Positions 2-32,760 of a DNA stretch of 64,000 nucleotides are shown piece by piece. The position numbers and the translations under genes are program-made. Positions within the stretch are counted from its first letter, which is position 1; the number at the start of each line of letters is the position of its first letter. Source of the DNA: Armatimonadota bacterium (lineage in GTDB: Bacteria; Armatimonadota; Fimbriimonadia; Fimbriimonadales; GBS-DC); contig JABWCR010000014.1 in NCBI GenBank assembly GCA_013359125.1, forward strand, positions 3,431 through 67,430, in the 5' to 3' direction. The notes below the pieces were generated by a model. That model was not told the DNA's origin. It ran no database searches and saw only the letters and a program-made list of their open reading frames with translations.

Positions 2-2752
2 GAAATCAATGCCCGAGGCATGCATCTAACCCCCGGGGTCATCGACTGCCATTCGCACACCGCCATCTCGGGCGGCGTCAACGAGGGCACCAACGTCGTT
101 ACGGCGGAAGTTCGCATTCGAGACGTGGTCAACCCGAACGATGTGAACATCTATCGCCAGTTGGCGGGCGGCGTTACCGCGGCGAACCTTTTGCACGGTT
201 CGGCCAACGTGATCGGCGGTCAGAACGCCACGATCAAAATGCGCTGGGGCAAGACGGCCGATGAGATCATGTTCAAAGAGGCACCCGAAGGCATCAAGTT
301 CGCCTTGGGCGAAAACGTCAAGCGGTCGAACTTTAACGAGATCATCTCGACCGGCCAGCAGCCGCGCTATCCCACAACGCGCATGGGCGTCGAGCAGACC
401 GTGCGCGAACGCTTCATGTCTGCGCTCGATTACAAGCGCCAGCAAGAGGAGTTCCGCGCGGGCCGGCGCGCATTCCCTCCCAAGAGGGATCTGCAGCTGG
501 ACGCTATTGTGGAGATATTGGACGGCAAGCGTTTGATCCATTGTCATAGCTACCGACAGGACGAAATCCTGATGCTGATCCGCGTTTGCGACGAGTTCGG
601 CGTCAAGATCAAGACTTTTCAGCATGTGTTGGAAGGTTACAAGGTGGCCGACGAGATGGCCGCTCATGGCGTCGGCGGCTCTACGTTCTCCGACTGGTGG
701 GCGTACAAGGTCGAGGCGTTCGATGCGATCCCGCATAACGGCGCCCTGATGACGGCGCGAGGGGTCAATGTCTCCTTTAACAGCGACAGTTCCGAACTGG
801 CGCGTCGTCTCAATCTGGATGCGGCGAAAGGCGTCAAGTATGGCGGCATGGACGAGCAGGAAGCACTGAAACTGGTAACGCTCAATCCGGCGATTCAGTT
901 GGGCGTCGATAAGTATGTCGGAACGGTCGAACCGGGCAAGCAGGCCGATTTGGCGCTTTGGACCGGGCATCCGCTCGATTCGATGACGCGGTGCGAGATG
1001 ACCTTTGTCGATGGCGTTCGCTACTTCGATCGCACGACCGATTTAGAGTTCCGCAAGAAGTTGGACGAAGAGCGCGAGACCTATTTGAAGCAATTGCGAC
1101 CGTCGCCCTATGGCCAGGCGGCTGCCGCTCAGCCCGAACAGCCAGGCGAATTGCGCTCATCCATTGCAGGGCAGTGGTCCGGCAAGTTGTCTGGAGCCGA
1201 GTTCCTGCCACCGGAAGGCGCGACGCTCAGCATGACGGTTACGGTAGGCGCGGACGGATCGATCACGGGCGTTTCCAAGACCGATATGGGCGATGCTCCG
1301 ATCACGGGCGGAACTTTTAATGCGGCTACGGGCGAGGTCAGCCTAAAGATCGCTGTGCCTGGTTTGTCCGAGGTTACTATGAACGGCCGCGTGCGCGGAC
1401 GAACCATGACCGGCACGATCGCCATCATGGGGCAGACCGTGAACGTCAACCTGACCAAGGACGACGAAGAGAATCAGATTCTTCATGCATCGCACGAAGC
1501 TGAGTTGAAGACCAAAGTCGAGATCAGCCCTCGCTATGATGCCAGCAAAACCAAGACCCTGAAGACGAAAGGTCGAATGCTGATAACAAACGCCGAAATC
1601 CACACCATGGCTGGGCCGGTCATCAAGAACGGCTCGATCCTGATCGAAGACGGCAAGATCGCGGCGATCAATCCTAACCGACCGAATGTCGAAACGGTCT
1701 ACGATGCAAAAGGCAAGCGAGTCTATCCGGGCATGATCGACGGCCTGACGACCCTTGGCATCACCGAAATAGGCTCAATCACTGCCACCAACGATACGTC
1801 GGAAACAGGGCAGTTCAACCCCAATGCGAGGGTCGAGATTGCGCTGAATCCCGATTCGACCGCTATCCCCGTTGCCCGGGCCAATGGGGTTACCACGGCC
1901 ATTGTCGCGCCGTCCGGAGGCATCATTTCCGGTCAAGGCTGTGTGGTCAATCTAGATGGCTGGACGTGGGAAGATCTCTGTTTGAAGGGGCCTATCGGCC
2001 AGTTCGTCAACTTTAACGGCCCTTCCAGCAGCATAACAGGCGCCACGGACAGTCGAAAGAGCGACTTTGAGAACTCGATCAAGCCGTTGGACGAGTTTAT
2101 CGAGAACGCTCGTCGCTATCTGAAGGCTAATGGCGCCAATCGGCCATTGGCGGAGCGCGATCCGAGATTTGAGGCGATGGCGCCTATTTTGGACGGGCGT
2201 TTGCCGCTGTTCTTAAGGCTCAACTCCCCTACCGCCGCTCGCGCCGCTGTACAGTGGGCCGAGAAGCAGAATGTTCGGATAGCCTTTGTCGGCGGCAGCG
2301 AACTTTGGCGGGTGGCCGATTTGCTCAAGGAGCACGATGTTCCGGTCATTCTCTCCAAGACCCATGCGTTGCCAGCGGGCGAGGATCGACCCTACGACGA
2401 GCCCTTTACTATCCCAGCCAAATTGCACCAAGCGGGCGTAGCGTTCTGCTTTAGCACGGGCGCCTCGTCCGATGTGCGGAATCTGCCCTATCAAGCGGCA
2501 ATGGCCGCTTCGTTCGGACTTCCGAAAGAGGTTGCTCTTAGGGCGCTGACCATCGATGCGGCCAAGATTTTCGGTCTCGAAGATCGAATCGGCTCTATCG
2601 AGGTTGGCAAGGATGCGAACCTGTTTATCTGCGACGGCGACCCGCTCGATATTCGCACTAACGTCGTCCAGACGATCATCGAAGGGCGCTTGTGCGACAT
2701 GTCTAACAAGCACACGCAGCTATACGACAAGTACCGATCTCGGCCAAAGTAG
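2..2752 (+). CDS. Amidohydrolase-superfamily protein, tandem two-domain form; 5' end cut by window edge
   Basis: The frame is open from nt 2 (EINARGMHLTPGVIDCHSH), so the ATG at 20 is internal. PGVIDCHSH is the HxH metal motif. Both halves end in the family C-terminal signature (GTVEPGKQADLALW and GSIEVGKDANLFICDGDPL). The second half has GMIDGLTTLG where HxH is expected. Confidence 0.85.
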   Translation, partial: EINARGMHLTPGVIDCHSHTAISGGVNEGTNVVTAEVRIRDVVNPNDVNIYRQLAGGVTAANLLHGSANVIGGQNATIKMRWGKTADEIMFKEAPEGIKFALGENVKRSNFNEIISTGQQPRYPTTRMGVEQTVRERFMSALDYKRQQEEFRAGRRAFPPKRDLQLDAIVEILDGKRLIHCHSYRQDEILMLIRVCDEFGVKIKTFQHVLEGYKVADEMAAHGVGGSTFSDWWAYKVEAFDAIPHNGALMTARGVNVSFNSDSSELARRLNLDAAKGVKYGGMDEQEALKLVTLNPAIQLGVDKYVGTVEPGKQADLALWTGHPLDSMTRCEMTFVDGVRYFDRTTDLEFRKKLDEERETYLKQLRPSPYGQAAAAQPEQPGELRSSIAGQWSGKLSGAEFLPPEGATLSMTVTVGADGSITGVSKTDMGDAPITGGTFNAATGEVSLKIAVPGLSEVTMNGRVRGRTMTGTIAIMGQTVNVNLTKDDEENQILHASHEAELKTKVEISPRYDASKTKTLKTKGRMLITNAEIHTMAGPVIKNGSILIEDGKIAAINPNRPNVETVYDAKGKRVYPGMIDGLTTLGITEIGSITATNDTSETGQFNPNARVEIALNPDSTAIPVARANGVTTAIVAPSGGIISGQGCVVNLDGWTWEDLCLKGPIGQFVNFNGPSSSITGATDSRKSDFENSIKPLDEFIENARRYLKANGANRPLAERDPRFEAMAPILDGRLPLFLRLNSPTAARAAVQWAEKQNVRIAFVGGSELWRVADLLKEHDVPVILSKTHALPAGEDRPYDEPFTIPAKLHQAGVAFCFSTGASSDVRNLPYQAAMAASFGLPKEVALRALTIDAAKIFGLEDRIGSIEVGKDANLFICDGDPLDIRTNVVQTIIEGRLCDMSNKHTQLYDKYRSRPK

Positions 2753-2762
2753 GCTAATCGGG

Positions 2763-2768
2763 TATACT
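2763..2768 (+). promoter_or_regulatory. -10-like box (GGTATACT) about 7 nt upstream of the riboswitch 5' end
   Basis: TATACT is preceded by GG, the same motif seen upstream of several other genes in the window. I found no convincing -35. Confidence 0.4.
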
Positions 2769-2774
2769 ATCGGC

Positions 2775-2925
2775 ACATCGCTTAACGACTCGCCCCAAAA
2801 AGGGCGAAGGACGTCGAGTTTTCGCACCCAGCGAAAAGCGGGGGACCCGGAAGTGGGGTGTAGTCCGCGAAGGCGGACCGAGTAATCTTGGCTCGAACCC
2901 GACAGCTAACCTCGTAGACAGAGCA
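2775..2925 (+). promoter_or_regulatory. c-di-AMP riboswitch (ydaO-yuaA class)
   Basis: The conserved blocks occur in order: AUCGCUUAA, GCGGGGGACCC, GGGGUGUAGUCC and GAACCCGACAGCUAACCUCGUAG. Local hairpins are CGCCCCaaaaaGGGCG and UCCGCgaagGCGGA. It lies in a 237-nt gap 5' of the operon starting at 2990. Confidence 0.75.
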
Positions 2926-2927
2926 AG

Positions 2928-2959
2928 AATCTGGCGGATGCTCACCAGATTTTCTCTTT
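2928..2959 (+). terminator. Possible riboswitch expression-platform hairpin/terminator
   Basis: AATCTGG (2928-2934) pairs with CCAGATT (2945-2951) across a 10-nt loop, followed by TTCTCTTT. The stem is short and AT-rich for this genome, so this is tentative. Confidence 0.35.
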
Positions 2960-2989
2960 GCGCACTGCTCGGCGGCCAAGGAGAACATC

Positions 2990-4468
2990 ATGTGCGGCAT
3001 TGCATGCGCCATACGAAGTTCCGATCCGGCCGAAGTTGCACGAATGTCGGAGAAAATCGCCCATCGCGGCCCTGACGGCGTCGGCCTGCTGGCCGACGCG
3101 GACAATGCCTTGGCTCATCGCCGTCTGGCCATTCTCGATCCCAAAGGAGGCGTGCAACCTTGGGCCACGCCAAGCGGTGGCGTGTTGATCTACAACGGCG
3201 AGATTTACAACCACCTAGGCCTTCGGTCGCAGATGCCTGACCGAACCTTTCAAACCCGGTGCGACACGGAAACCCTGGCCGCAGCGCTCGAGAATTGGGG
3301 CGCAGACGCCGTCGAGAAACTGGACGGTATGTTCGCATTTGTCTATGTCGACGGAGAGCGATACATCGCGGCCAGAGACCCGGTCGGCATCAAACCTCTG
3401 TTTCGAGCGGACCGCAACGGCGCGACCATCTTTGCGAGCGAGTTCAAAGCTTTTGACGATCAATGCACGAACATTGAGGACGTCCCTGCGGGCACCGTCA
3501 TCGATTCTGAAACGGGCGCCAAGCAGTTTTACTTTGTACCGAAGCCCGAGCCGCGCGCGATGTCGATGGAGACAGCGGCGGATGCCGTGCGAAGCATTCT
3601 TTACCGTGCGGTCTCTAAGCGCATGCTTTCGGATGTGCCGGTCGGAGTCTTCTTAAGCGGCGGGCTCGACAGCGCTATTATCGCCGCAATTGCAGTTAGG
3701 CTGAATCCAGACACGATGGCCTTTTCGGTCGGTTTCCACGACAGCCAGGACGCAGGGGCAGCGCAGGAGGTTGCGGCAGCTCTCGGAATGCGCCACTGCC
3801 ACGTTAGCCTGAGCGCGGGCAAATTGGTCGAAATGCTGCCGAAAGTCATTTATCACCTCGAGTCGTTCGATGCGCCGCTCGTTCGCAGCGCCTTGGCCAA
3901 CTATGCCGTTTCCGAGATGGCGCGGGATCACATAAAAGTGGCCCTCACGGGCGAAGGCGCCGATGAACTCTTTGCCGGATACGACTATCTTAGAGAGTTT
4001 TCCGGCGTTGGGCTGGACGAGAAACTCCGGTCGCTGGTTCTGGAGCTTCAGAATACCAATCTGCAGCGAACCGATCGAATGACGATGGCTCACGGGATTG
4101 AGGGGCGCGTGCCGTTTCTCGACAAGGAGATGATTGCGCTCGCGTTCCAACTCCCGGTCGAGCTAAAGCTCTCTCCAGCAGGCGTCAGCAAGGCCGTTCT
4201 GCGCATGGCGTTTCGGGACATGCTGCCAAATTGGGCGGTCAATCGTCCTAAGCAGGAGTTTGGTCGCGGCACCGGTGTGGCCGAAGTGATGGCCAAACAT
4301 GCAGCGATAGCGATCACTGACGATGAGTTTGAGGCTAACAGATTCGTATCGAGCGGGCTACCGTTGCGCGACAAGGAAGAGCTGATTTACTACCGAGTCT
4401 GGCGGAGTTTCTTCCGGCCGGAACTGACCGCTCTGGTCGGTCGAAGCCGCAAAGAGGAGATTGAATGA
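2990..4468 (+). CDS. Asparagine synthase (glutamine-hydrolysing)-like amidotransferase
   Basis: N-terminal MCGI gives the Cys2 nucleophile of a class II GATase. YNGEIYN is present, as is the PP-loop FLSGGLDSAIIAA. An SD (AAGGAGAA) lies upstream. Confidence 0.9.
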   Translation: MCGIACAIRSSDPAEVARMSEKIAHRGPDGVGLLADADNALAHRRLAILDPKGGVQPWATPSGGVLIYNGEIYNHLGLRSQMPDRTFQTRCDTETLAAALENWGADAVEKLDGMFAFVYVDGERYIAARDPVGIKPLFRADRNGATIFASEFKAFDDQCTNIEDVPAGTVIDSETGAKQFYFVPKPEPRAMSMETAADAVRSILYRAVSKRMLSDVPVGVFLSGGLDSAIIAAIAVRLNPDTMAFSVGFHDSQDAGAAQEVAAALGMRHCHVSLSAGKLVEMLPKVIYHLESFDAPLVRSALANYAVSEMARDHIKVALTGEGADELFAGYDYLREFSGVGLDEKLRSLVLELQNTNLQRTDRMTMAHGIEGRVPFLDKEMIALAFQLPVELKLSPAGVSKAVLRMAFRDMLPNWAVNRPKQEFGRGTGVAEVMAKHAAIAITDDEFEANRFVSSGLPLRDKEELIYYRVWRSFFRPELTALVGRSRKEEIE

Positions 4469-5574
4469 GCGACAAACCGAGATTTGCTATCTTGGGGGCC
4501 GGAAACGGCGGCTTAGCCATGGCTGGCCACCTGGCCTTGATGGGCTTCCCCGTCTCGCTTTTCAATCGCAACGAGGCGAGGATCGCGCTCATCCGGCAAA
4601 CAATGGAGATTCAGGTGCTGGCCAATCGCGAATCGGACGATCTTCCGCACGGCAGGGCTTCCATGGACCGTGTAACGTCGAACATGGCCGAAGCGATTCA
4701 CGATGCCGAGATCATCATGGTCGTCGCTCCCGCGACGGCGCACAGATATATGGCCGAAGAGGCTGCTCCGCACTTGCGCGACGGCCAGATCGTTGTGCTC
4801 AATCCGGGGCGAACGGGCGGCGCGCTGGAGTTTCGCCATGTGATCAAGGAAAAAGGATGCACGGCTGACGTTGTCGTGTCGGAGGCTCAAACGTTGTTAT
4901 ACGCCAGCCGAGCGTCCAACCCCGGACAGGTCAACATCTTTAGTATCAAGAACAGCGTGCCGATAGCCGCAATACCGGCCTACCGAACGCCTGAGGTGGT
5001 CAAGAGGCTCTCGGTCGCCTACCCCCAGTTTGTACCCGGCGACAATGCGCTCAAGACCAGCCTGGACAACATCGGCGCGATCTTTCATCCGGCGGTAACT
5101 TTGCTGAACGCAGCGCGAATTGAGACCGGCCGCGGCGATTTTGAGTTCTATATCGAAGGCATCTCGCGAAGCGTGGCCAAGGCGCTGGAGGTGATCGATG
5201 TAGAGCGAGTGAACGTCGGAAAAACCCTTGGTTTCAACTGTATGAGCGCGCGGGATTGGCTCTATGTGGCCTATGGCGCTGCGGGCAAAACCCTCTTCGA
5301 CTCCATCCGCGCTAACGAAGGCTACTATGGCATCAAGGCGCCCACACTGCTCGATCATCGCTATTTGACCGAGGACGTGCCGATGAGCCTGGTGCCCATT
5401 GCATCGTTGGGACGACACATGGACTCGCCATGCCCCACTATCGAAGCCATGATCCACTTAGCCAACGTCATCTTGGGAGTCGATTTCTGGGAAACTGGAC
5501 GCACCGTCGAATCGATGGGGCTGTCTGGCCTAAACTTGCAACAGATTCGCCGCGTCATTCTTGACGGAGAGTGA
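4465..5574 (+). CDS. NAD(P)-dependent opine (octopine/nopaline) dehydrogenase-family protein
   Basis: Has the GAGNGG Rossmann motif (FAILGAGNGGLAMAGHL). Family-typical blocks are DNIGAIFHPAVTLLNAARIE and FYIEGIS. Its start overlaps the upstream stop as ATGA. Confidence 0.85.
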   Translation: MSDKPRFAILGAGNGGLAMAGHLALMGFPVSLFNRNEARIALIRQTMEIQVLANRESDDLPHGRASMDRVTSNMAEAIHDAEIIMVVAPATAHRYMAEEAAPHLRDGQIVVLNPGRTGGALEFRHVIKEKGCTADVVVSEAQTLLYASRASNPGQVNIFSIKNSVPIAAIPAYRTPEVVKRLSVAYPQFVPGDNALKTSLDNIGAIFHPAVTLLNAARIETGRGDFEFYIEGISRSVAKALEVIDVERVNVGKTLGFNCMSARDWLYVAYGAAGKTLFDSIRANEGYYGIKAPTLLDHRYLTEDVPMSLVPIASLGRHMDSPCPTIEAMIHLANVILGVDFWETGRTVESMGLSGLNLQQIRRVILDGE

Positions 5575-5575
5575 G

Positions 5576-7453
5576 ATGAAGCCCCTTTCAGGCCGCGAGG
5601 TTATTGGTTTGTGCCGCCCCTATGTCGATGCTCATACGCTTGGGGTCAGCGCGATCGAGCAGCTCCTTATCGAGTGCGGATACGAGACGGTCATTGCCGA
5701 TGCGGACCTATGCGAAGCGGTCGGAGCGCCGAACGAACCCATTAACGAGGTTAAGATCGAGAATTGGATCAAGACCAACGGAATCAGCCGCTTGGGATTC
5801 AGTTACCGCTTGGACCCTGTTGACGGCGCCCGAGCATTTGGACGACTGAAGGCTGCGCTTGAGCGACGAAACCTCTTTGAAGAGAACGGAGGGCCGATCA
5901 AGGGCCTCTATTTTGCGGGTCTGCCCGAAGCCTGTCGTCGAGTCGAGGCTGAACATCGCGACAGTGTGAGAACCTTTATCGGCGATGAATCCCCCGCAGA
6001 GACTTTAGAAAAGTTTGGCGTCCCCAGCGGCCGCATTCCGTCTGCCCTTGCCAACGAGGCAACGGAGGATGCGGCACGGCTGGCTTTTGGCCAACGGCTC
6101 GTGCGATCCGAAGCCCACCTTAAGATAAAGCCTGTCGACCGGTCCGGCGGACCGAACTTTGGAACAAGGCGAGAGCATCTGCGCGACCGCATCGACCACG
6201 GCATCCAAATGGGCTTCCCGCCTCTGATGCGCGCGCATGTCGGGCCTTATCTTCCCAATCGGGAGGAGGCAGTCAGGCTCTATATCGAGCAGGCAAGGCA
6301 ATTGGCCGAGACCGGCTTCTTGGACGTGCTCTCGATCGGCTCCAGCCAATTGAGCCAAAGCCATTTCGGTCAAGACTGGGGCGATCTTCCCAACGGTGGC
6401 GGCGTGCCTGTCAACTCGCCAGAAGAGTATCGCGCCATCTACGAGGCGGCTCGACCGATGCTTGTGCGCACCTATGCCGGTACGAGAAATGTCGACAAAC
6501 TGGCGCCTGTCTACGAGGAGACGATCAACATCGCCTGGCACGCGCTTTCGTTTTGGTGGTTTTCGACCATCGATGGTCGCGGTCCAAATCCGCCCTTGCT
6601 CAATCTTCAACAGCACATGGCGACGCTGGAGCACATTGCACGGACCGGCAAGCCTTTCGAACCCAACATCCCCCATCATTTTGCGTTTCGGGGCGCGGAC
6701 GATGTCTCTTATGTCGTCTCTGCCATCTTGGCCGCGCGAACGGCTAAGCGCTTGGGCGTGCGCTATTTTGTGCTACAGCACATGCTCAACACGCCTCGTA
6801 GCACATGGGGGTCTCAAGACATTGCCAAAGGTCGGGCCATGCTCGCGTTAGCCCGAGATTTGGAGGACGAGCGGTTTCGCGTATTCTATCAGCCGCGCGC
6901 GGGCCTCGATTTCTTCTCGCCCGGCCTTGACAAGGCCAAGGCGCAGTTGGCTTCTGTCAGCGTTCTGATGGACTTGGTCGAGCCGAACAAACCGCATTCG
7001 CCCGATGCAATCCATGTGGTCAGTTACACCGAGGCCAGCCATTTGGCCGCGCCGCACGAGGTGGACGAGAGCATCCAGATAACGAGGGCGGCGATCGAAG
7101 CGCGCAGAAGGGAGAGATTCCAAGAAGGCGGAGAGTTGGAGCGCGAGGCCCAAGAGCGAACGGAAAAATTGCTGGGGGATGCCCGCAAGCTTCTAGCGAC
7201 GATGGAAGAGGCGATTCCCGATCTCTACTCCGCGAAGGGTCTCTACGATGCTTTCTGGGCGGGGTTCATGCCCGTGCCTTATCTGTGGGAAGGGCGAGAC
7301 GAGTTTGCTCGTGCCGTCAACTGGAAGACGGCCTTGCGAAACGGTTCGGTGATCGTGATCGACGAAAGGGGCCAACCAATTGAAGCAGAGGATCGTGCAA
7401 AGGTCGCAACGGCGAACCTGATTGACAACTATGCCGGCCGCCGTGTAGAATAG
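5576..7453 (+). CDS. B12-binding-like domain (DxHxxG) fused to a large mutase-like C-terminal domain
   Basis: DAHTLG lies in an N-terminal Rossmann-like segment of about 130 aa. The C-terminal 480 aa or so shows only motif-level resemblance to glutamate mutase E-type barrels (from memory). I prefer the ATG at 5576 (GGAGAG SD) over the listed TTG at 5561. Confidence 0.75.
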   Translation: MKPLSGREVIGLCRPYVDAHTLGVSAIEQLLIECGYETVIADADLCEAVGAPNEPINEVKIENWIKTNGISRLGFSYRLDPVDGARAFGRLKAALERRNLFEENGGPIKGLYFAGLPEACRRVEAEHRDSVRTFIGDESPAETLEKFGVPSGRIPSALANEATEDAARLAFGQRLVRSEAHLKIKPVDRSGGPNFGTRREHLRDRIDHGIQMGFPPLMRAHVGPYLPNREEAVRLYIEQARQLAETGFLDVLSIGSSQLSQSHFGQDWGDLPNGGGVPVNSPEEYRAIYEAARPMLVRTYAGTRNVDKLAPVYEETINIAWHALSFWWFSTIDGRGPNPPLLNLQQHMATLEHIARTGKPFEPNIPHHFAFRGADDVSYVVSAILAARTAKRLGVRYFVLQHMLNTPRSTWGSQDIAKGRAMLALARDLEDERFRVFYQPRAGLDFFSPGLDKAKAQLASVSVLMDLVEPNKPHSPDAIHVVSYTEASHLAAPHEVDESIQITRAAIEARRRERFQEGGELEREAQERTEKLLGDARKLLATMEEAIPDLYSAKGLYDAFWAGFMPVPYLWEGRDEFARAVNWKTALRNGSVIVIDERGQPIEAEDRAKVATANLIDNYAGRRVE

Positions 7454-7460
7454 GGCCGAT

Positions 7461-8333
7461 ATGCAGCCATGGATGGTCTCTTTGCACGGAGGACACAGCG
7501 GCGACTATTGTGACCACGCCCAAGGGACCCTCCGAGAAATCATCGAAACGGCGATCCGCATGGGCTTCCACACTTATGGTCTCGCCGAGCATATGCCTCG
7601 CGTCGAGGATCGCTTCATTTACTCGGAAGAACGCTCGATGGGTTGGGATGTCGAACATCTCCACAGGATGTTCGACGCTTATGCCGTCGAGACCCGCGCA
7701 CTGGCCGAGGAGTACGCCGATCGGATCGTCATTCTGAGAGGGTTTGAGGCCGAAGTGATCCCCCAGGACCGCTATCCGGACCTAATCCGACAAACCCTCG
7801 ATCGCTATCAGTTTGACTTTTTTGTCGGCTCGGCGCACTACGTGCGCGAGATCATTATCGATGGGCCGGACGAGCAGTTTGCCCATGCGATCGAGGTATA
7901 CGACGGTCTGGAGAACATGGCTGTGGCGTACTATGAAACGGTGGCCGATCTGATCGAGGCCGTCTCTCCGCCCGTGATCGGCCATTTTGATCTGGTCAAA
8001 AAGCGCGCTCGGCCCCATGGTCCGGTCGACGGTCCTCGCGCAAGGGAAGCGGCCTATCATGCCCTGACGCTGGCCAAACAGCATGACTGCATTCTCGATC
8101 TAAACCTTGCGGGTTGGCGAAAAGGGCTGAACGAACCCTATCCGGCGCCTTGGATAGTCGAAATGGCGCGAGAATTAGGCATCGACTTTTGCTTTGGCGA
8201 CGACAGCCACGGCCCTCATCAAGTGGGCGAGAACATTGAAAAAGGCCGCCTCTATCTGCTCGAACACGGCGTCAAGCACATTCGCGCTCTCAAACCCGGC
8301 GGACAATCCGATGTGATCTCTCTGGAGGCTTAG
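7461..8333 (+). CDS. PHP-family histidinol-phosphatase-like phosphoesterase (HisJ/His2 type)
   Basis: PHP metal ligand blocks are present: HGGHSGDYCDH, GLAEHMPR, GSAHYV, GHFDL and GDDSHG. It lies 7 nt after the upstream stop. Confidence 0.8.
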   Translation: MQPWMVSLHGGHSGDYCDHAQGTLREIIETAIRMGFHTYGLAEHMPRVEDRFIYSEERSMGWDVEHLHRMFDAYAVETRALAEEYADRIVILRGFEAEVIPQDRYPDLIRQTLDRYQFDFFVGSAHYVREIIIDGPDEQFAHAIEVYDGLENMAVAYYETVADLIEAVSPPVIGHFDLVKKRARPHGPVDGPRAREAAYHALTLAKQHDCILDLNLAGWRKGLNEPYPAPWIVEMARELGIDFCFGDDSHGPHQVGENIEKGRLYLLEHGVKHIRALKPGGQSDVISLEA

Positions 8334-8335
8334 AC

Positions 8336-10840
8336 ATGATCTCTATCTTGCTTGCTTGCCTGATCGCCCAGCAGCCGATTCGTTCGGGCGACTCGCAACC
8401 GATCCATGATCCATGGAGACCCGTAACGCGGATCGACCGCACTGGTTTCAAACTCCAGTACTACACGTCGCAGCCGTGCGACTCTAGAGTTCAGGTTCGC
8501 CAAGGCGATCTGCCGATGACGACCTTTGGCAAAGGGCTTGAGAATGTTTGGGTCGGCGCGCTCACGTTCGCTCGACCGGGACAGCGAACCTTGCACGAGA
8601 TCGAGATAACAGGGCTGGAGCCGGGCAAGAAGTACTTTTATCGAATTCTTGATCCGGGCGCCGTGCCGACCGGCCAAGAAAAGCGCTGGGGCGCAAAGCC
8701 TCCGTGGCGGCGCGAGCAGAGCGTCATCACGCAGGCCTCCAGAGGCTACAAGAGCATCGTCCGCATTCCGGTCAAAGTGCTTCTGATGCCCAATGTCGTC
8801 AACCTGAAGAGCGTAACGTCGGACGCGATGCAACCGTTGCCCCTCAGCGAAGAGGAGCTTCGCATCGTCCGGCAAGAATACGCTTACACATCGCGATTTT
8901 TCTTCGTCAACAGCGGCATGAGGCTTTGGGTCGATTTTCAGATATTTGTCGATAATCGGTGGCAGCGATGGAGCGAGGAGCCAGAAGGAATCGAGGCCTT
9001 CTACAAAGGATGGCCCGCATGTCGAAGCTGGTCGGGCGAGGATTTTCGCGGACCGGGCGGCGGCGACTTCACCGTTGTGGATACGAGAAACCTCCAGGTC
9101 AAGAACGCTCAACCTGTTCAAGAAGAGACGCCCTATATGGGGCAGATCGAACAGGCCTTCCCTCGGCGATGGAACCCGACTCTAAAGAAGTGGGAGTTTT
9201 ACAACAGCGGCGGGGGCACGTTTGGAGCGGACGAATTTCCCCGAGGTGTTACCAGCCGCTCGCAGTACCTTGGCGGAGGCGACACCGCTTGGCTAGCCTG
9301 TCATGAGTTTCATCACCAACTGGAATCGCATGGCGCATTCAGTCTCAGCGATCGCGAGGATGAGCGCGTGGTTTTCAATCACTACGAACCAAGGCGCCGA
9401 GAACAGAGGCCCGATGGAACGTATGCCGAAGCGACCTGGGCGACCAGCGGCAAGCATGGCGAGCATTGGGACGGTATGGCTTTTTGGGATCGAACGCTGA
9501 CGGACGCGCAATGGTTGCGGATGTATATGTCCTATGCGGTGGTCGTCCGCGATGCCGACGAGGACGGCGTGCCGGACGACGATCCTCGCCTGCCGTTGGA
9601 TGAGAAGCGGTTTGGCAGCGACCCGAGGCGAGACAGGACGGACGGGCGCATGGGCGATTTGGACAAGACCATGCTGAGCCACTGGATACCTTCTTGCCTT
9701 CAGGCCAGTTGGACCAAGCCCCCTTTCCAAGGAGTAACTCCCAATCCTCGCAGCATCGACAGCGACGGGGACGGCCAGCCGGACGACATCGACCCGTTGC
9801 CGCTTTTTGCCTATTCCCCGTTCGTCTGGCCCAAGCGAGCGACCGTGGACGGCCAGGCCGACGAATGGCGGCATACCCCTGTTAGCGGACAGATGGACGA
9901 GGGCGGGGCCGCGCTGACCTTTAAGCATGGGCACGACGACGCGGCCTACTATGGAGTCTTCACTGTTTCGGGAGACTGGAAGCGCGTTTATGCAACTTTG
10001 GACGGCGAGGGCGAGGGCTTTTTCTCGACCAATCGCACCCTTGCGATCGAGTTTACAAACGGCGCTGACGTTGCGTTTCGTTCGATACATGGCAACAGCA
10101 AGGGCCTAAACTGGAAGGCGAGCAAATCGGGCAGTGAGACCGTCATCGAGTTCTCGATCCCCAACCGCGAGGAAGGGCCTTGGTTTTGGCGGCGCGGCGG
10201 TCGCGAGGTCGGCGTGAGCATCGACCTGTTCGACGAGAAGGGAACGGGCTATTCGGTCTACGAGCCGTATCGAGCGATCTACTTTAGGATGTTGGAGCCG
10301 CACGGACAGTTTCCTATGCCGAGCGGCGCTCCGAGCGAACTGGGGACGGACGCCAAGCGCTTTATGCCAGGGGATGCAGCCGTTGCGGTTACAGGTTCCG
10401 GCTGGCGGGTTGCGGACGGCGCATGGCGATGCGACACCCATCCCGAAACTCATCTCACGATCGAGGCGCCCGATGCGACCGAGTTCGATCTGTGGATCGA
10501 CATCGAGGCTAAGCAGGACGCGATTCTGGCAGCTTTCTTGCCCGGATCGCAGAATCCGACTGCCGGGACGGACTATGTGCTCTTTGTCGGCGGCTATGCC
10601 AACACCGTTACGCGGTTTCGGCTTTTTGGCAGAGAAGAGGGCGAGGCGGATCAGATGATGTCGCCTGGTCGCCATCGAGTTCAACTGAGCCGCCGGAACG
10701 GCACTATTTGGGGTCTGATGGACGGCAAGCCGATACTCTGGGCAAAAGACCCGAACCCGACGGCCAAGATCAATCGTCTGGCAATCATCGGAGGTTACGA
10801 CGGGAACCAAGTTGTTCGAGAAATTCGCGCCCGCTGGTAG
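8336..10840 (+). CDS. Large multidomain protein with an HExxH metallopeptidase-like motif
   Basis: Strong SD (GGAGG). Domain order as read: an FN3-like segment resembling the purple-acid-phosphatase N-domain (LHEIEITGLEPGKKYFYRI); HEFHH; two acidic Ca-binding-like motifs (DADEDGVPDDD and DSDGDGQPDDID); and C-terminal lectin-like regions. Confidence 0.8.
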   Translation: MISILLACLIAQQPIRSGDSQPIHDPWRPVTRIDRTGFKLQYYTSQPCDSRVQVRQGDLPMTTFGKGLENVWVGALTFARPGQRTLHEIEITGLEPGKKYFYRILDPGAVPTGQEKRWGAKPPWRREQSVITQASRGYKSIVRIPVKVLLMPNVVNLKSVTSDAMQPLPLSEEELRIVRQEYAYTSRFFFVNSGMRLWVDFQIFVDNRWQRWSEEPEGIEAFYKGWPACRSWSGEDFRGPGGGDFTVVDTRNLQVKNAQPVQEETPYMGQIEQAFPRRWNPTLKKWEFYNSGGGTFGADEFPRGVTSRSQYLGGGDTAWLACHEFHHQLESHGAFSLSDREDERVVFNHYEPRRREQRPDGTYAEATWATSGKHGEHWDGMAFWDRTLTDAQWLRMYMSYAVVVRDADEDGVPDDDPRLPLDEKRFGSDPRRDRTDGRMGDLDKTMLSHWIPSCLQASWTKPPFQGVTPNPRSIDSDGDGQPDDIDPLPLFAYSPFVWPKRATVDGQADEWRHTPVSGQMDEGGAALTFKHGHDDAAYYGVFTVSGDWKRVYATLDGEGEGFFSTNRTLAIEFTNGADVAFRSIHGNSKGLNWKASKSGSETVIEFSIPNREEGPWFWRRGGREVGVSIDLFDEKGTGYSVYEPYRAIYFRMLEPHGQFPMPSGAPSELGTDAKRFMPGDAAVAVTGSGWRVADGAWRCDTHPETHLTIEAPDATEFDLWIDIEAKQDAILAAFLPGSQNPTAGTDYVLFVGGYANTVTRFRLFGREEGEADQMMSPGRHRVQLSRRNGTIWGLMDGKPILWAKDPNPTAKINRLAIIGGYDGNQVVREIRARW

Positions 10841-11362: not shown

Positions 11363-12537
11363 AGTTCCTGTTAGTCATTTCCGTCCTCTTTGCGGCTGTG
11401 CAACCGCCTACGTATAGCGATCAGATTGCAGCGATCTTGGACGAACACTGCGCGCCCTGCCATCGAGCCAATGCGATCGGCCCGTTTACCCTGACCGACT
11501 ACGAATCGGCGCGGAAGCGCGCGCCTCAACTGGCCTATGTGGCGCAACGACGACTGATGCCGCCTTGGAAAGCCGAGCCTTGCGACGTGGCATTCGAAGG
11601 CGAACGAAGGTTGACGAGGGAACAGATTCGCCTCATCGACGACTGGGCGGCCGCCGGCGCCCCCGAAGGCGATCCAAGGCGACGCCCCAAACCGCCGAGT
11701 TTTAGCCAGGGATGGGCGCTGGGGCAGCCGGACGAGATCGTACAGCTGCCCAGAGAGCACGCCATTCCCGCAGAGGGGCGCGATCTGTTCTATACGTTCG
11801 CCATCCCACTGAGGGCAGACAAGGAGAGATATGTCAGCGCAATCCAAGTCATGCCCAGCAATCCGCGCGTGCTGCACCACGTGCTGGTCTATGCGAACAA
11901 GCAGAACCTTCCGAGCGGCAAGGCGCTCGCGCCGCACGATCCCGATTCGTTCCTCTTCATTTGGTCTCCAGGGCATCCGACAGTTAAACTGCCTGAAGGC
12001 ATCTACAAACGAATTCCGGCTGGTTCGGGTCTGCTGGTCCAAGCGCACTACCATGCAACGGGGAGAGAGGAGCGCGATCGGCTCAGAATCGGTCTTTACT
12101 ACGCTGGGCAACCCAAGGACGAGGTTGAGATGGTTGAGATTGCGCCAAAACTGCCGACGATCCCGGCCAATGAAAGTCGATTCTTGATCCAAGAGACCGT
12201 CAAGATCGATAAAGATCGGACGCTGTTAGGCATCGTCCCCCATGCCCGGTTGCTGTGCGTTGAGGTTAGGCTGACTCTGAGATTGCCGACCGGGGAAACC
12301 AAATCGCTTCTGATCATTCGCGACTGGGACTTTAACTGGCAGGATCGATATGTGCTCAAGGAGCCTTTGACTTTACCAAAGGGCTCTCAGTTGACTGCTC
12401 GGTTCATTTATGATAACTCTTCGGCGAATCCTCGGAATCCCATCGCTCCGCCTCGACCAATAGCCGCTGGACAGGGGTTGGAAGACGAGACCGCGTTGAT
12501 CTGGCTCGAAACGCTGCCCGCCAAGACGGTACAATGA
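11359..12537 (+). CDS. Secreted c-type heme (CxxCH) domain fused to a copper type II monooxygenase-like domain
   Basis: Signal peptide MKFLLVISVLFAA. Carries CAPCH, plus HH (VLHHVLVY) and HxH (QAHYHATG) arranged as in PHM/DBH-type Cu sites. The ATG at 11359 overlaps the upstream stop (ATGA). Confidence 0.75.
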   Translation: MKFLLVISVLFAAVQPPTYSDQIAAILDEHCAPCHRANAIGPFTLTDYESARKRAPQLAYVAQRRLMPPWKAEPCDVAFEGERRLTREQIRLIDDWAAAGAPEGDPRRRPKPPSFSQGWALGQPDEIVQLPREHAIPAEGRDLFYTFAIPLRADKERYVSAIQVMPSNPRVLHHVLVYANKQNLPSGKALAPHDPDSFLFIWSPGHPTVKLPEGIYKRIPAGSGLLVQAHYHATGREERDRLRIGLYYAGQPKDEVEMVEIAPKLPTIPANESRFLIQETVKIDKDRTLLGIVPHARLLCVEVRLTLRLPTGETKSLLIIRDWDFNWQDRYVLKEPLTLPKGSQLTARFIYDNSSANPRNPIAPPRPIAAGQGLEDETALIWLETLPAKTVQ

Positions 12538-16649: not shown

Positions 16650-18476
16650 ATGGATTATAAAGAACTTTCAAGGCGCAGGCCCAACCCCGCCATGGCGCGC
16701 GCCAGTCTCTTCTTTGGGCTGATCGTCGTCGCGCTGCTGATCTTGTGGCTACGGCTTTGGTATCTACAAATCGCCCAAGGCGAGCAGCTGGAACTGAAGG
16801 CGCAGAGCGCTCGCACTCGTTTTGTGCGAATTGCACCTCCGCGTGGAGCGATCGTCGATCGTAACGGTCTCCCCTTAGCCACCAACAAGCCGTTGGTCTT
16901 CGTTGTGTCCGTAGTGCCCGACGAGGCCAAGCGCAATCCCGACCACCTCCATCTGATCGCCAATCTGCTGAATCTTGACTTCGCTAAGCTTAAGGCAGAT
17001 GTGGAATCGCCGCACGTCAATCCCTTCGCCCCTGTGATTATTGCCAGCGGTCTGAGCTATCAGCAAGCCGTGCCCGTTTTCGAGGCGCAGCATCGCTTTC
17101 CCGAGCTTCGAGTCTGGATGGACTCGCCTCGATCTTATCCTCTTGGCTCCTCGGCCGCTCATCTCATCGGCTATGTCGGTCAGGTTTCGCCGGACGAGTT
17201 GAAGCGATATGCCGCCCTGTCGGAGGACGCAGACTCCGACGGCAACCTGCCCATCGCCCGGTACGATGGCGGCGATTTGGTCGGCAAGATCGGCGTCGAG
17301 CATCGATACGAACTGCGCCTGCATGGCCAGCCCGGCGGCGAGCGTGTAGAAGTTACGCCCAAGGGCCGACACGCAAGAGTGCTGGAAACGATCGAGAGCG
17401 AACGAGGCGAGCGCCTGGCCCTTACGATCGACGCCAACCTCCAGCAGTTGGCGTACCAATTGCTCGTTGACAAGAAGGTTCGCGGCGCTCTCGTCGCCAT
17501 CGACCCCAGGAACGGCCAAGTCATTGCTCTGACAAGCCGCCCAGCCTACAATCCCAACCTCTTTGTCGGACGGATTCCCGCCGACCTTTGGAACTCTCTG
17601 ACGAACGATAAGAGCGCGCCTCTGCAGCACCGCGCCATACAGTCGGCTTACGCGCCGGGTTCGATCTACAAGATGGTTACCGCCATGAGCGTGCTGGAGA
17701 CAGGGCTGATGAGCCCGCGCAACACGGTTACTTGTCGCGGAGGCACGCAATTGGGCACAAGATTCTTTAAGTGCCACGCTACTCACGGCACGGTCAATAT
17801 GTTGGGAGCGATCGCTCACTCTTGCGACAGCTACTTCTACGAGGCCGCTCGCCGCGCAGGCCCTAACCGCCTGGCCGAGTACAGTCGGATGTTCGGCCTC
17901 GGCGTTCCCACTGGGATCGACCTGCCTCACGAAGGCAAGGGCTTAGTGCCCGATGAGGAGTGGAAGCGCAAGCGATACAAGCAGGCTTGGTACGGCGGGG
18001 ACACCTTCAACTACGGAATCGGACAAGGCTTTCTTCAAACGACGCCGATCCAGATGGCGCAGATGACCTGCGTTGTGGCCAACCGCGGTTTTGCCTATGC
18101 GCCAAGATTGTTGCTGGAGGCAGAACCACAAATCGCCATCAAACCGTTTGGCCAATCCGCTCACTGGGAATTAGTCCATAGGGGCATGGTCTCGGTCGTT
18201 TCATCGGGCACTGCGCGCAGCGTAACTCTCCCGGGCATCCAAGTCGCAGGCAAAACAGGATCGGCCGAGTTTAGAAAGGGCGGCAAGACCCATAGTTGGT
18301 TCGTGGCTTATGCGCCGGCCGACAAACCAGAGATCGCTCTGGTCGTTATGGCCGAAGAAGCCGGACACGGGGGGACCATCGCCGCGCCGATTGCCAAGGC
18401 GTGGCTAGAGGCTTATTTTAAGGACAAAAGAAAAGCGGCGGGCGCCAGAACTGCAACGCCCGCCAACGCGCTTTAG
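16650..18476 (+). CDS. mrdA: Penicillin-binding protein 2 (class B transpeptidase)
   Basis: TM anchor followed by the PBP dimerisation region. Transpeptidase motifs are SIYK (SxxK), an SxD in HSCDSYFY and KTGSAE. The ATG at 16650 follows the PBP1A stop. Confidence 0.85.
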   Translation: MDYKELSRRRPNPAMARASLFFGLIVVALLILWLRLWYLQIAQGEQLELKAQSARTRFVRIAPPRGAIVDRNGLPLATNKPLVFVVSVVPDEAKRNPDHLHLIANLLNLDFAKLKADVESPHVNPFAPVIIASGLSYQQAVPVFEAQHRFPELRVWMDSPRSYPLGSSAAHLIGYVGQVSPDELKRYAALSEDADSDGNLPIARYDGGDLVGKIGVEHRYELRLHGQPGGERVEVTPKGRHARVLETIESERGERLALTIDANLQQLAYQLLVDKKVRGALVAIDPRNGQVIALTSRPAYNPNLFVGRIPADLWNSLTNDKSAPLQHRAIQSAYAPGSIYKMVTAMSVLETGLMSPRNTVTCRGGTQLGTRFFKCHATHGTVNMLGAIAHSCDSYFYEAARRAGPNRLAEYSRMFGLGVPTGIDLPHEGKGLVPDEEWKRKRYKQAWYGGDTFNYGIGQGFLQTTPIQMAQMTCVVANRGFAYAPRLLLEAEPQIAIKPFGQSAHWELVHRGMVSVVSSGTARSVTLPGIQVAGKTGSAEFRKGGKTHSWFVAYAPADKPEIALVVMAEEAGHGGTIAAPIAKAWLEAYFKDKRKAAGARTATPANAL

Positions 18477-19705: not shown

Positions 19706-20004
19706 CTCTTGCGCCTCCTTTTGTTCGTAGATTAACAAAGATTATGGCCATTTTTAGGCCAGTATGTCAAGCCAATAGCAAATAGGCCGGACATCGAAAG
19801 GAGGATCGATGCCCGGCCGTCTCTCGTCGCTCGGGCCGGCGGACCCAAGCGCCCGTCTCGCGGTATCAACGGTCTGAAGACCGCCGCACCCTTTACGGAG
19901 AAAGGAGGTCAATCACTTATATAGACGATTGTCGGCTAAAAAGGGTTCGCTCAACCTGTCCTCAGGTAAAATCCGTCCATAGAACGACTGAGGCCGACTA
20001 TCCG

Positions 20005-31265: not shown

Positions 31266-32618
<1,353 letters not shown>

Positions 32619-32654: not shown

Positions 32655-32755
32655 CATGCGCGGGGATAGGCGGAGGTCGGCCGCTTTCCCTACGCCGGTA
32701 CTAACCGGATCAGGTTCGAGGGGTTCGTCTCAGCCTCTTGGCGCCCCCAGCGACG
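32655..32755 (-). promoter_or_regulatory. TPP (THI-box) riboswitch
   Basis: The minus strand reads GGGGCGCCAAGAGGCUGAGACGAACCC..GAACCUGAUCCGGUUAGUACCGGCGUAGGGAAAGCGG. A downstream CCUCC segment can pair with the thiC SD (AGGAGG). Confidence 0.85.
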
Positions 32756-32760
32756 CTCTT

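Follow-up and report, generated by a model that had tools for sequence, protein, structure and literature searches.

The window analysed here is a stretch of 64,000 nucleotides (nt) from an Armatimonadota bacterium (contig JABWCR010000014.1). Close to its start, an intergenic gap of 237 nt separates an amidohydrolase open reading frame (ORF; 20-2752, +) from an ORF that begins with an ATG at 2990. The gap contains an RNA of the cyclic di-adenosine monophosphate (c-di-AMP) riboswitch class, and the operon behind it encodes an asnB-like amidotransferase, an Octopine_DH-family dehydrogenase, a cobalamin (B12)-binding enzyme, a HisJ-family phosphatase and a protein with a hydrophobic N-terminus (Table 1). 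As set out below, the dehydrogenase and the B12 enzyme form a module that is found in many other genomes, where its neighbours point to a role in salt or osmotic stress.

The whole window was compared with all 4227 Rfam families using cmscan. Two matches exceeded the gathering score: the c-di-AMP riboswitch (RF00379, the ydaO/kimA leader) at 2802-2932 (+) and a thiamine pyrophosphate (TPP) riboswitch at 32669-32758 (-). The RF00379 match reaches 62.7 bits against a gathering score of 38 (E-value 3.6e-12) and spans model positions 1-134 of 134, without truncation. This bears out the c-di-AMP riboswitch call of a sequence-only reading that preceded the present analysis, and the gap length given there (237 nt) agrees as well. 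A permissive rescan of 2700-3010 returned no further family of note, even at E<=10, and an upstream tandem with a Na+ or Li+ aptamer, in the style of Dehalobacter, was rejected on that basis. The aptamer occupies a leader position, 50 nt past the upstream stop codon and 58 nt ahead of the asnB-like ATG on the same strand, and is followed by a hairpin, a U-rich tract and a helix that pairs with the Shine-Dalgarno (SD) sequence. The TATACT hexamer that had been put forward as a -10 box is present, but a promoter scan of 2500-3200 gave no -35/-10 pair (0 sites). Judged by score, full-length match, covariation, pseudoknot and leader position, the element at 2802-2932 is a genuine aptamer of the c-di-AMP class (ydaO/RF00379), and as such an additional instance of a well-known class; binding of c-di-AMP by this RNA and the direction of control are predicted.

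The helices of the aptamer were placed by the cmscan alignment. In the unconstrained minimum free energy (MFE) fold of the leader five of the six helices are recovered and only the short P1 is replaced, its 5' strand pairing instead with an upstream hairpin (2785-2816), which may be an element of the apo-state or a matter of chance. The equivalent of the family 5' element 'cGCcgAAu' is CGUCGAGU at 2812-2819. Four conserved blocks had been listed in the earlier reading and all are present: GCGGGGGACCC (2838-2848), GGGGUGUAGUCC (2855-2866) and GAACCCGACAGCUAACCUCGUAG (2895-2917) belong to the core aptamer, whereas AUCGCUUAA (2777-2785) falls outside the model match. The latter was also considered as a P1 strand and rejected, as its 3' partner would provide only four base pairs (bp; GCUU/GAGC) and the covariance model puts P1 at 2812-2815. 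The loop of the 2879-2895 hairpin can pair with the purine-rich 3' tail of the aptamer (2886-2890/2924-2928), at what we take, from the published consensus, to be the pseudoknot site of the class.

RF00379 was found directly upstream of the module in two further loci (loci are referred to by L numbers). In L054, from Fimbriimonadia bacterium ATM, it lies at 8582-8712 (77.5 bits) and is followed by octDH-CBL-asnB, and in L101/L102, from freshwater sediment, it lies at 1453-1591 (87.5 bits) and is followed by octDH-CBL. Since the gene order in these loci differs from that in the window, the common target is the dehydrogenase-mutase pair. The L101 dehydrogenase has a counterpart of at least 90% identity that is labelled Thermoleophilia, on a 1.5-kb contig that makes the assignment weak. 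Exact and fuzzy motif scans of 166 loci (2.18 Mb) detected the riboswitch beside the module only in the window's own species, in L054 and in L101/L102. The association recurs in three lineages, yet it is rare.

Covariation was assessed on the cmscan alignments of the window, L054 and L101, put in register; a MAFFT alignment of the same sequences was out of register at GGGGUG, and the pair counts were therefore taken from the cmscan alignments. Among these only three sequences, two-sided changes that preserve pairing occur in 9 of the 26 model pairs, and 2 of the 26 include a non-standard pair in some sequence. The pseudoknot covaries too (UCUUG/CAAGA in the window, GUUUCG/CGAAAC in L054 and ACUCUUCC/GGAAGAGU in L101). 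The highly conserved unpaired cores of the class that were checked are GGGGA, GGGGUGAAU and CCCGNCAGCUAACC, with CAGCUAACC as a further core; GGGGA, CCCGNCAGCUAACC and CCGACAGCUAACC are intact in the window. The conserved junction UGAAU has become UGUAG (A55U and U57G, in model positions). A55U is the sole core change unique to the window: position 57 varies in L054 too, A17G is common to the window and the best-scoring copy, L101, and the changes at 17, 57, 74 and 75 are all present in higher-scoring relatives.

Table 1. Features of the riboswitch leader and the downstream operon (window coordinates)
Feature	Position	Strand	Description
Possible -10 hexamer TATACT	2763-2768	+	Sequence; without -35 partner
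Leader hairpin 5' of the aptamer	2785-2816	+	UCGCCC 2790-2795/GGGCGA 2802-2807; outer ACG 2785-2787/CGU 2812-2814; MFE folds
Aptamer	2802-2932	+	cmscan RF00379, MFE folds, compensatory pairs
P1	2813-2815/2917-2919	+	G2813-C2919, U2814-A2918, C2815-G2917; plus C2812-A2920 mismatch
Second helix	2819-2825/2831-2837	+	cmscan alignment
Third helix	2838-2843/2910-2915	+	cmscan alignment
Fourth helix	2855-2857/2898-2900	+	cmscan alignment
Fifth helix	2863-2868/2873-2878	+	cmscan alignment
Sixth helix	2879-2882/2892-2895	+	cmscan alignment
Pseudoknot 5' strand UCUUG	2886-2890	+	Loop of 2879-2895 hairpin; complementary to CAAGA
Pseudoknot 3' strand CAAGA	2924-2928	+	Purine-rich 3' tail; overlaps base of downstream hairpin
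Hairpin AGAAUCUGG/CCAGAUUUU	2926-2934/2945-2953	+	9-bp stem, 10-nt loop, 3 G-C pairs; then UUUUCUCUUU (CUCUUUG)
U/C-rich tract UUUUCUCUUUG	2950-2960	+	Terminator tail or anti-SD strand, depending on reading
Ribosome-binding region	2977-2992	+	SD AAGGAG 2978-2983, 6 nt before asnB-like ATG 2990-2992
asnB-like glutamine-dependent amidotransferase	2990-4468	+	492 amino acids (aa); N-terminal Cys2; PF00733 237.7 bits, GATase_7 112 bits
Octopine_DH-family NAD(P) dehydrogenase	4465-5574	+	369 aa; PF02317 158 bits; start overlaps asnB-like stop
Cobalamin-binding enzyme	5576-7453	+	625 aa; N-terminal B12 domain fused to GlmE-like TIM barrel
HisJ-family PHP phosphatase	7461-8333	+	290 aa; TIGR01856 197 bits, cut-off 90
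Protein with hydrophobic N-terminus	8336-10840	+	834 aa; co-directional, 2 nt past phosphatase gene; weak Pur_ac_phosph_N, below cut-off

The gene products named in the earlier reading (an amidotransferase, an opine dehydrogenase, a B12 enzyme and a phosphatase) agree with the domain, motif and fold searches, which gave Asn_synthase/GATase, Octopine_DH, a B12 enzyme with DxHxxG and glutamate-mutase fold, and a PHP/HisJ phosphatase. The asnB-like protein scores 399 bits with TIGR01536 (cut-off 267) and 444.6 bits with NF006949 (AsnB), the latter below the cut-off of 499. The PHP phosphatase belongs to the operon in this lineage only and is not part of the module at other loci. For the 625-aa enzyme, Pfam, NCBIfam and a PDB profile search gave no identity at the sequence level and only a fold search succeeded: its AF2 model (pLDDT, the predicted local distance difference test, 84) has glutamate mutase 1cb7_B as best PDB fold match in Foldseek (E 2.4e-10, target TM-score 0.60). 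The motif DAHTLG (DxHxxG) at residues 18-23 is invariant in 21 homologues. Both features of a glutamate-mutase-like mutase, the DxHxxG motif and a GlmE-type TIM barrel, are found in the protein, and on this motif and the fold match to 1cb7_B it is a predicted fused S+E-type adenosylcobalamin mutase. It resembles glutamate mutase GlmS/GlmE (PDB 1cb7) in its DxHxxG B12 domain, in a TIM barrel that best matches GlmE and in a length that corresponds to the S and E subunits fused, and differs in its low identity (~14%), in the fusion with the B12 domain first and in the absence of a Pfam or PDB sequence match. Its more than 2800 homologues are named at best 'cobalamin-binding protein'.

Two further features of the window may be noted. 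The amidohydrolase gene upstream of the riboswitch is truncated at its start by the window: the full-length gene, present in L001 (1336-5763), encodes 1475 aa with three Amidohydro_1 domains in tandem, and the ORF in the window corresponds to the C-terminal two thirds. The TPP riboswitch (RF00059) scores 68.3 bits (gathering score 54.3) and immediately precedes thiC (31266-32609, -; NF006763, 738 bits), an ordinary pairing that was to be expected.

With the 625-aa B12 protein as anchor, 160 distinct loci were gathered from genomes and metagenomes, and in 114 of them the dehydrogenase and mutase genes are neighbours. Among cultured organisms, Azoarcus indigens DSM 12121 and Jeotgalibaca caeni have the pair. 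The pair occurs in two contexts. In the first (43 of the 160 loci, mostly Bacteroidota, including L023, L034, L045, L085, L156 and L161-L166) it is found among genes for a DegT aminotransferase, an ATP-grasp ligase, a GT2 glycosyltransferase and a flippase, a polysaccharide context, which implies that the product is also used to substitute glycans. In the second context, represented in Planctomycetota, Verrucomicrobiota, Lentisphaerota, Acidobacteriota, Deltaproteobacteria and Armatimonadota, an asnB-like gene joins the pair (30 loci). The asnB and polysaccharide contexts overlap in a single locus. Genes for MscS channels are located inside or beside the module in 15 of the 160 loci, often between the two enzyme genes, and none of these 15 loci carries polysaccharide genes. 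We found no literature on the dehydrogenase-mutase module.

Regulators of the module were sought by Rfam scans of 36 loci of the second context. An nhaA-I RNA (RF03057) precedes the module on the same strand in five of them (L030 6602-6655, L044 7691-7744, L063 3769-3824, L118 693-746 and L144 7872-7927). Two further copies in L018 (5535-5588 and 6378-6431) lie upstream of a small conserved membrane ORF adjoining the module, and in L019 (898-949, -) and L021 (6834-6885, -) an nhaA-I RNA is found beside the module on the opposite strand. These loci belong to Verrucomicrobiota, Acidobacteriota and Planctomycetota, and their RNAs may be of the Li+ or the Na+-II variant. Experiments have shown that nhaA-I RNAs sense Li+, and some variants Na+; they are also linked to nhaA, to otsA (trehalose synthesis) and to mscS (PMC9646797). 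In addition, a NhaR-type LysR regulator is encoded divergently from the module in L018 (7043-8047, -), L021 (6946-7875, -) and L050 (5220-6122, -), with a NhaR equivalog score of 231.6 bits (cut-off 219).

A few peculiarities of these loci may be mentioned here. The small membrane protein that follows nhaA-I near the module (~110-120 aa; L018 6445-6804, +; L044 ~7788-8115, +) has no Pfam or NCBIfam match, and its copies have the motif RY(L/I)DIR..L.G......PATxxxWRRY in common. The dehydrogenase of L018 (8178-9848, +; Planctomycetota) carries an N-terminal PTS_EIIA_2 domain (PtsN-like; PF00359, 82 bits), which suggests phosphorylation-based control of the enzyme, and an ORF in L030 (6570-8456, +) appears, by eye only, to have a like N-terminal extension. 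In L032, from Rikenellaceae, a cobalamin riboswitch (11963-12164, +; 86.3 bits) is situated immediately after the B12-mutase gene and before the gene of a TonB-dependent receptor; in this lineage B12 uptake adjoins the B12 enzyme.

Mechanosensitive channels act as release valves for compatible solutes (PMC5924519). Because the MscS, nhaA-I and NhaR links converge in other genomes, the module in its second context probably serves salt or osmotic stress. These links, together with the precedent of ablA in Dehalobacter, an osmolyte gene under paired Na+ and c-di-AMP riboswitches (Na+ turning it on and c-di-AMP off; PMC9337991), place the operon of the window most likely within the osmotic and ionic-stress theme of c-di-AMP, by analogy. 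The sequence-only reading had regarded the operon as lying outside the usual regulon. As far as the literal gene set goes this stands: summaries of Nelson 2013 describe the regulon of the class as ion, osmoprotectant and amino-acid transporters plus cell-wall enzymes (PMC9960051, PMC10117811), and within the associations reported in these summaries the gene set is new for the class. In physiological terms, given the links seen elsewhere, the claim is probably wrong.

Since both contexts add an amide-forming enzyme (AsnB-like or ATP-grasp), the core product of the module is probably a carboxylic (amino) acid, which the AsnB-like enzyme would turn into a neutral, zwitterionic amide, as befits a compatible solute. 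The module most likely serves to make a small compatible solute of the amidated amino-acid or opine type. We consider it likely that a genuine c-di-AMP riboswitch exerts OFF control over an osmotic-stress-linked dehydrogenase-mutase operon. A wider proposal, to which we give slightly less than an even chance, is that the Octopine_DH, the fused B12 mutase and the AsnB-like enzyme constitute an unrecognised cobalamin-dependent compatible-solute pathway in at least ten phyla, which would have been put independently under the control of c-di-AMP (OFF), nhaA-I (ON) or NhaR, with MscS valves in some lineages, and with the same acid being placed on surface polysaccharides in the Bacteroidota and others.

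How the riboswitch could act on the operon was examined in folds of the leader. The sequence UUCUCUUUG (2952-2960) can form 9 bp with CAAGGAGAA (2977-2985) and thereby cover the SD sequence, and this helix is present in every full-leader fold. The duplex has a predicted energy of -16.8 kcal/mol, which is equalled by 4.4% of shuffles. The SD-pairing duplexes of L054 (-18.0 kcal/mol, 0.6% of shuffles) and L101 (-18.9 kcal/mol, 3.0%) behave alike, so that shuffled controls are beaten in three of the three leaders (fractions 0.044, 0.006 and 0.030). The SD helix and the hairpin at 2926-2953 vie for 2945-2960. When the aptamer is left unconstrained, the long hairpin with a free SD (-84.9 kcal/mol) and the SD helix (-87.0 kcal/mol) are near-isoenergetic. 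When P1 and the pseudoknot are enforced, they take up 2917-2919 and 2924-2928; the hairpin becomes smaller, and all solutions contain the SD helix. In L054, the accessibility of the SD drops from 0.50 to 0.23 when the 3' strands of P1 and pseudoknot are blocked. As the ligand-state folds remove the partner of the anti-SD tract, they suggest an OFF switch, and the element most likely works as a genetic OFF switch. With helices that are alike in all three leaders, the 9-bp helix between U-rich tract and SD is, on the folding evidence, the better-supported OFF element than a hairpin terminator; that SD sequestration is the main mechanism we regard as an evenly balanced proposition.

In such a mechanism, high c-di-AMP would lock P1 and the loop-to-3'-tail pseudoknot (2886-2890/2924-2928), and locking would remove CAGAG...AGA (2919-2928) as a partner of the U/C-rich tract at 2950-2960. 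The freed tract would hold the SD region (2977-2985) in the 9-bp helix, which is the OFF state, and the shortened hairpin with its freed U-tract may additionally terminate part of the transcripts. At low c-di-AMP, as after an osmotic upshift, the longer hairpin (2919-2960) would form first during transcription and occupy the anti-SD tract, so that translation would be permitted.

A number of observations weigh against this picture. At local equilibrium the unpaired probability of the window SD is 0.0 both with and without the 3' strands of P1 and pseudoknot blocked; the SD is paired in both states, and any switching would therefore have to be kinetic. Pairing of the pseudoknot 3' strand with the anti-SD tract is no better than in shuffled controls. 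By-eye complementarity in the three leaders had made this strand a candidate anti-anti-SD, but shuffles did equally well and it is kept only as a kinetic hypothesis. P1 is short, with three pairs and a C-A mismatch, and the UGUAG junction (positions 55 and 57) means that one of the two sites may fail to bind ligand. The riboswitch accompanies the module at only 3 of about 150 distinct loci, and an Rfam scan detected no RF00379 in six other Armatimonadota loci (L007, L008, L010, L011, L017 and L041). The MscS, nhaA-I and NhaR links all lie outside the window, and the 43 loci in polysaccharide clusters indicate that the product is not exclusively a free solute.

The sequence-only reading had combined two different ideas, a switch that turns the operon off by termination at the hairpin 2926-2953 plus U-tract, and an operon unrelated to the normal c-di-AMP regulon. 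The hairpin and the U-rich tract are present: the hairpin, with UUUUCUCUUU behind it, comes right past the aptamer and has a folding energy of -16.3 kcal/mol including an outer CAGAG/CUUUG helix (z -2.64), and the characterised Firmicute members of the class do terminate transcription (PMC9960051, PMC9337991). With aptamer and pseudoknot enforced, moreover, the stem shortens to AUCUGG/CCAGAU and the U-tract becomes largely unpaired, which is nearer to terminator geometry, with the qualification that a 4-bp AGAG/CUCU helix still covers 2954-2957. A terminator-based mechanism is nevertheless weakly supported, and the weakness of the stem had already been pointed out in that reading. The genome does use classical terminators, as those at 18436-18465 (-) and 19785-19818 (-) attest, and against this yardstick (stems of 12-13 bp, 8-9 of them G-C pairs, with a T-run behind each) the leader hairpin has three G-C pairs and a 10-nt loop, and was not called by the terminator scan. 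Constrained folds contain it irrespective of the aptamer state and show no antiterminator. One candidate, the loop AAUCUUGG (2884-2891) with CCAGAUU (2945-2951), was rejected as unsupported: the pairing spans a long range, requires a bulge and is absent from the folds. The features expected of an intrinsic terminator, namely a stable G+C-rich stem, a short loop, a U-run directly behind and a competing antiterminator, are thus not found together at 2926-2953; the leaders of L054 and L101 are without a terminator, and the U-rich tract doubles as the anti-SD strand. Termination is rather unlikely to be the main mechanism, and it could act jointly with SD sequestration. The products of the operon are indeed neither transporters nor wall hydrolases, but the module's links to MscS, nhaA-I and NhaR are at odds with an unrelated operon, and we judge the combination of a terminating switch and an unrelated operon to be unlikely.

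A genuine riboswitch could also control an operon for modification of the cell envelope, such as peptidoglycan amidation or a surface glycan with an unusual acid, which would match the cell-wall theme of c-di-AMP riboswitches in Actinobacteria. Several Gram-positives use AsnB-type enzymes to amidate meso-diaminopimelate, the pair resides among DegT, ATP-grasp, GT2 and flippase genes in the polysaccharide clusters described above, and the operon extends to the 834-aa protein, which is probably exported. Members of the class in Actinobacteria control wall enzymes, according to summaries of the regulon (PMC9960051, PMC10117811). The near-exclusive separation of the asnB and polysaccharide contexts, with MscS only outside the latter, argues against an envelope role, as do nhaA-I and NhaR, which point to ionic stress, and no glycosyltransferase, flippase, DegT or ATP-grasp gene adjoins the module in the window, L054 or L101; we hold this explanation for improbable. 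Far less probable still is that the RNA has diverged from the class and lost c-di-AMP binding, through a change of ligand or as a decaying relic. The window copy does have the lowest score of the three (62.7 against 77.5 and 87.5 bits), a P1 of three pairs with a mismatch, and the window-specific A to U change at conserved junction position 55 plus the change at 57. Its score is, however, far above the gathering threshold, helices and pseudoknot are intact, GGGGA and CCCGNCAGCUAACC are unchanged, most of its core changes recur in higher-scoring relatives, and identical copies, found on 21 contigs of several samples, speak for a sequence that is maintained. We retain, as the likely one, the reading of a c-di-AMP riboswitch on an osmotic-stress-linked operon.

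Compared with the known members of RF00379 (e.g. those of B. subtilis kimA, B. thuringiensis kdpFABC and Streptomyces rpfA), the window RNA agrees in its full-length model match, helices, pseudoknot, cores, 5' leader position and expected OFF logic, and differs in its Armatimonadota host, in biosynthetic targets that are not listed for the class, in a weak P1, in one window-specific core substitution and in a doubtful terminator. A closer parallel for the expression platform is the translational c-di-AMP riboswitch of Corynebacterium glutamicum nlpC (PMC9960051), which likewise operates in a high-GC host without a convincing terminator and has a C/U-rich anti-SD segment that lies 3' of the aptamer and can pair with GGAG in the ribosome-binding site. 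Its target, however, is a cell-wall peptidase, and in the window the anti-SD tract is also the 3' side of a terminator-like hairpin. For the physiology, the closest precedent is the tandem of Na+-I and c-di-AMP riboswitches on ablA (lysine 2,3-aminomutase) in Dehalobacter sp. CF (PMC9337991), where c-di-AMP turns off a gene for an osmolyte precursor, in line with the salt-ON and c-di-AMP-OFF logic proposed for the window. The differences are that the c-di-AMP and nhaA-I riboswitches of the module occur in separate organisms and not in tandem, and that the ablA enzyme is a radical-SAM aminomutase, whereas the window encodes a B12 mutase and an opine-type dehydrogenase.

As an RNA the riboswitch is unremarkable, and its value is that it leads to a widespread, unannotated module of B12 mutase and opine dehydrogenase. 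The mutase belongs to no Pfam family and has no solved relative by sequence, and the pair is found in loci from many phyla. Convergence of regulation usually reveals the physiological role of an unknown pathway. If the interpretation given here is correct, the module would represent a new B12-dependent osmoprotectant pathway, the c-di-AMP riboswitch regulon would be widened from transporters and wall enzymes to a biosynthetic module, and the Armatimonadota would provide an instance of this riboswitch class.

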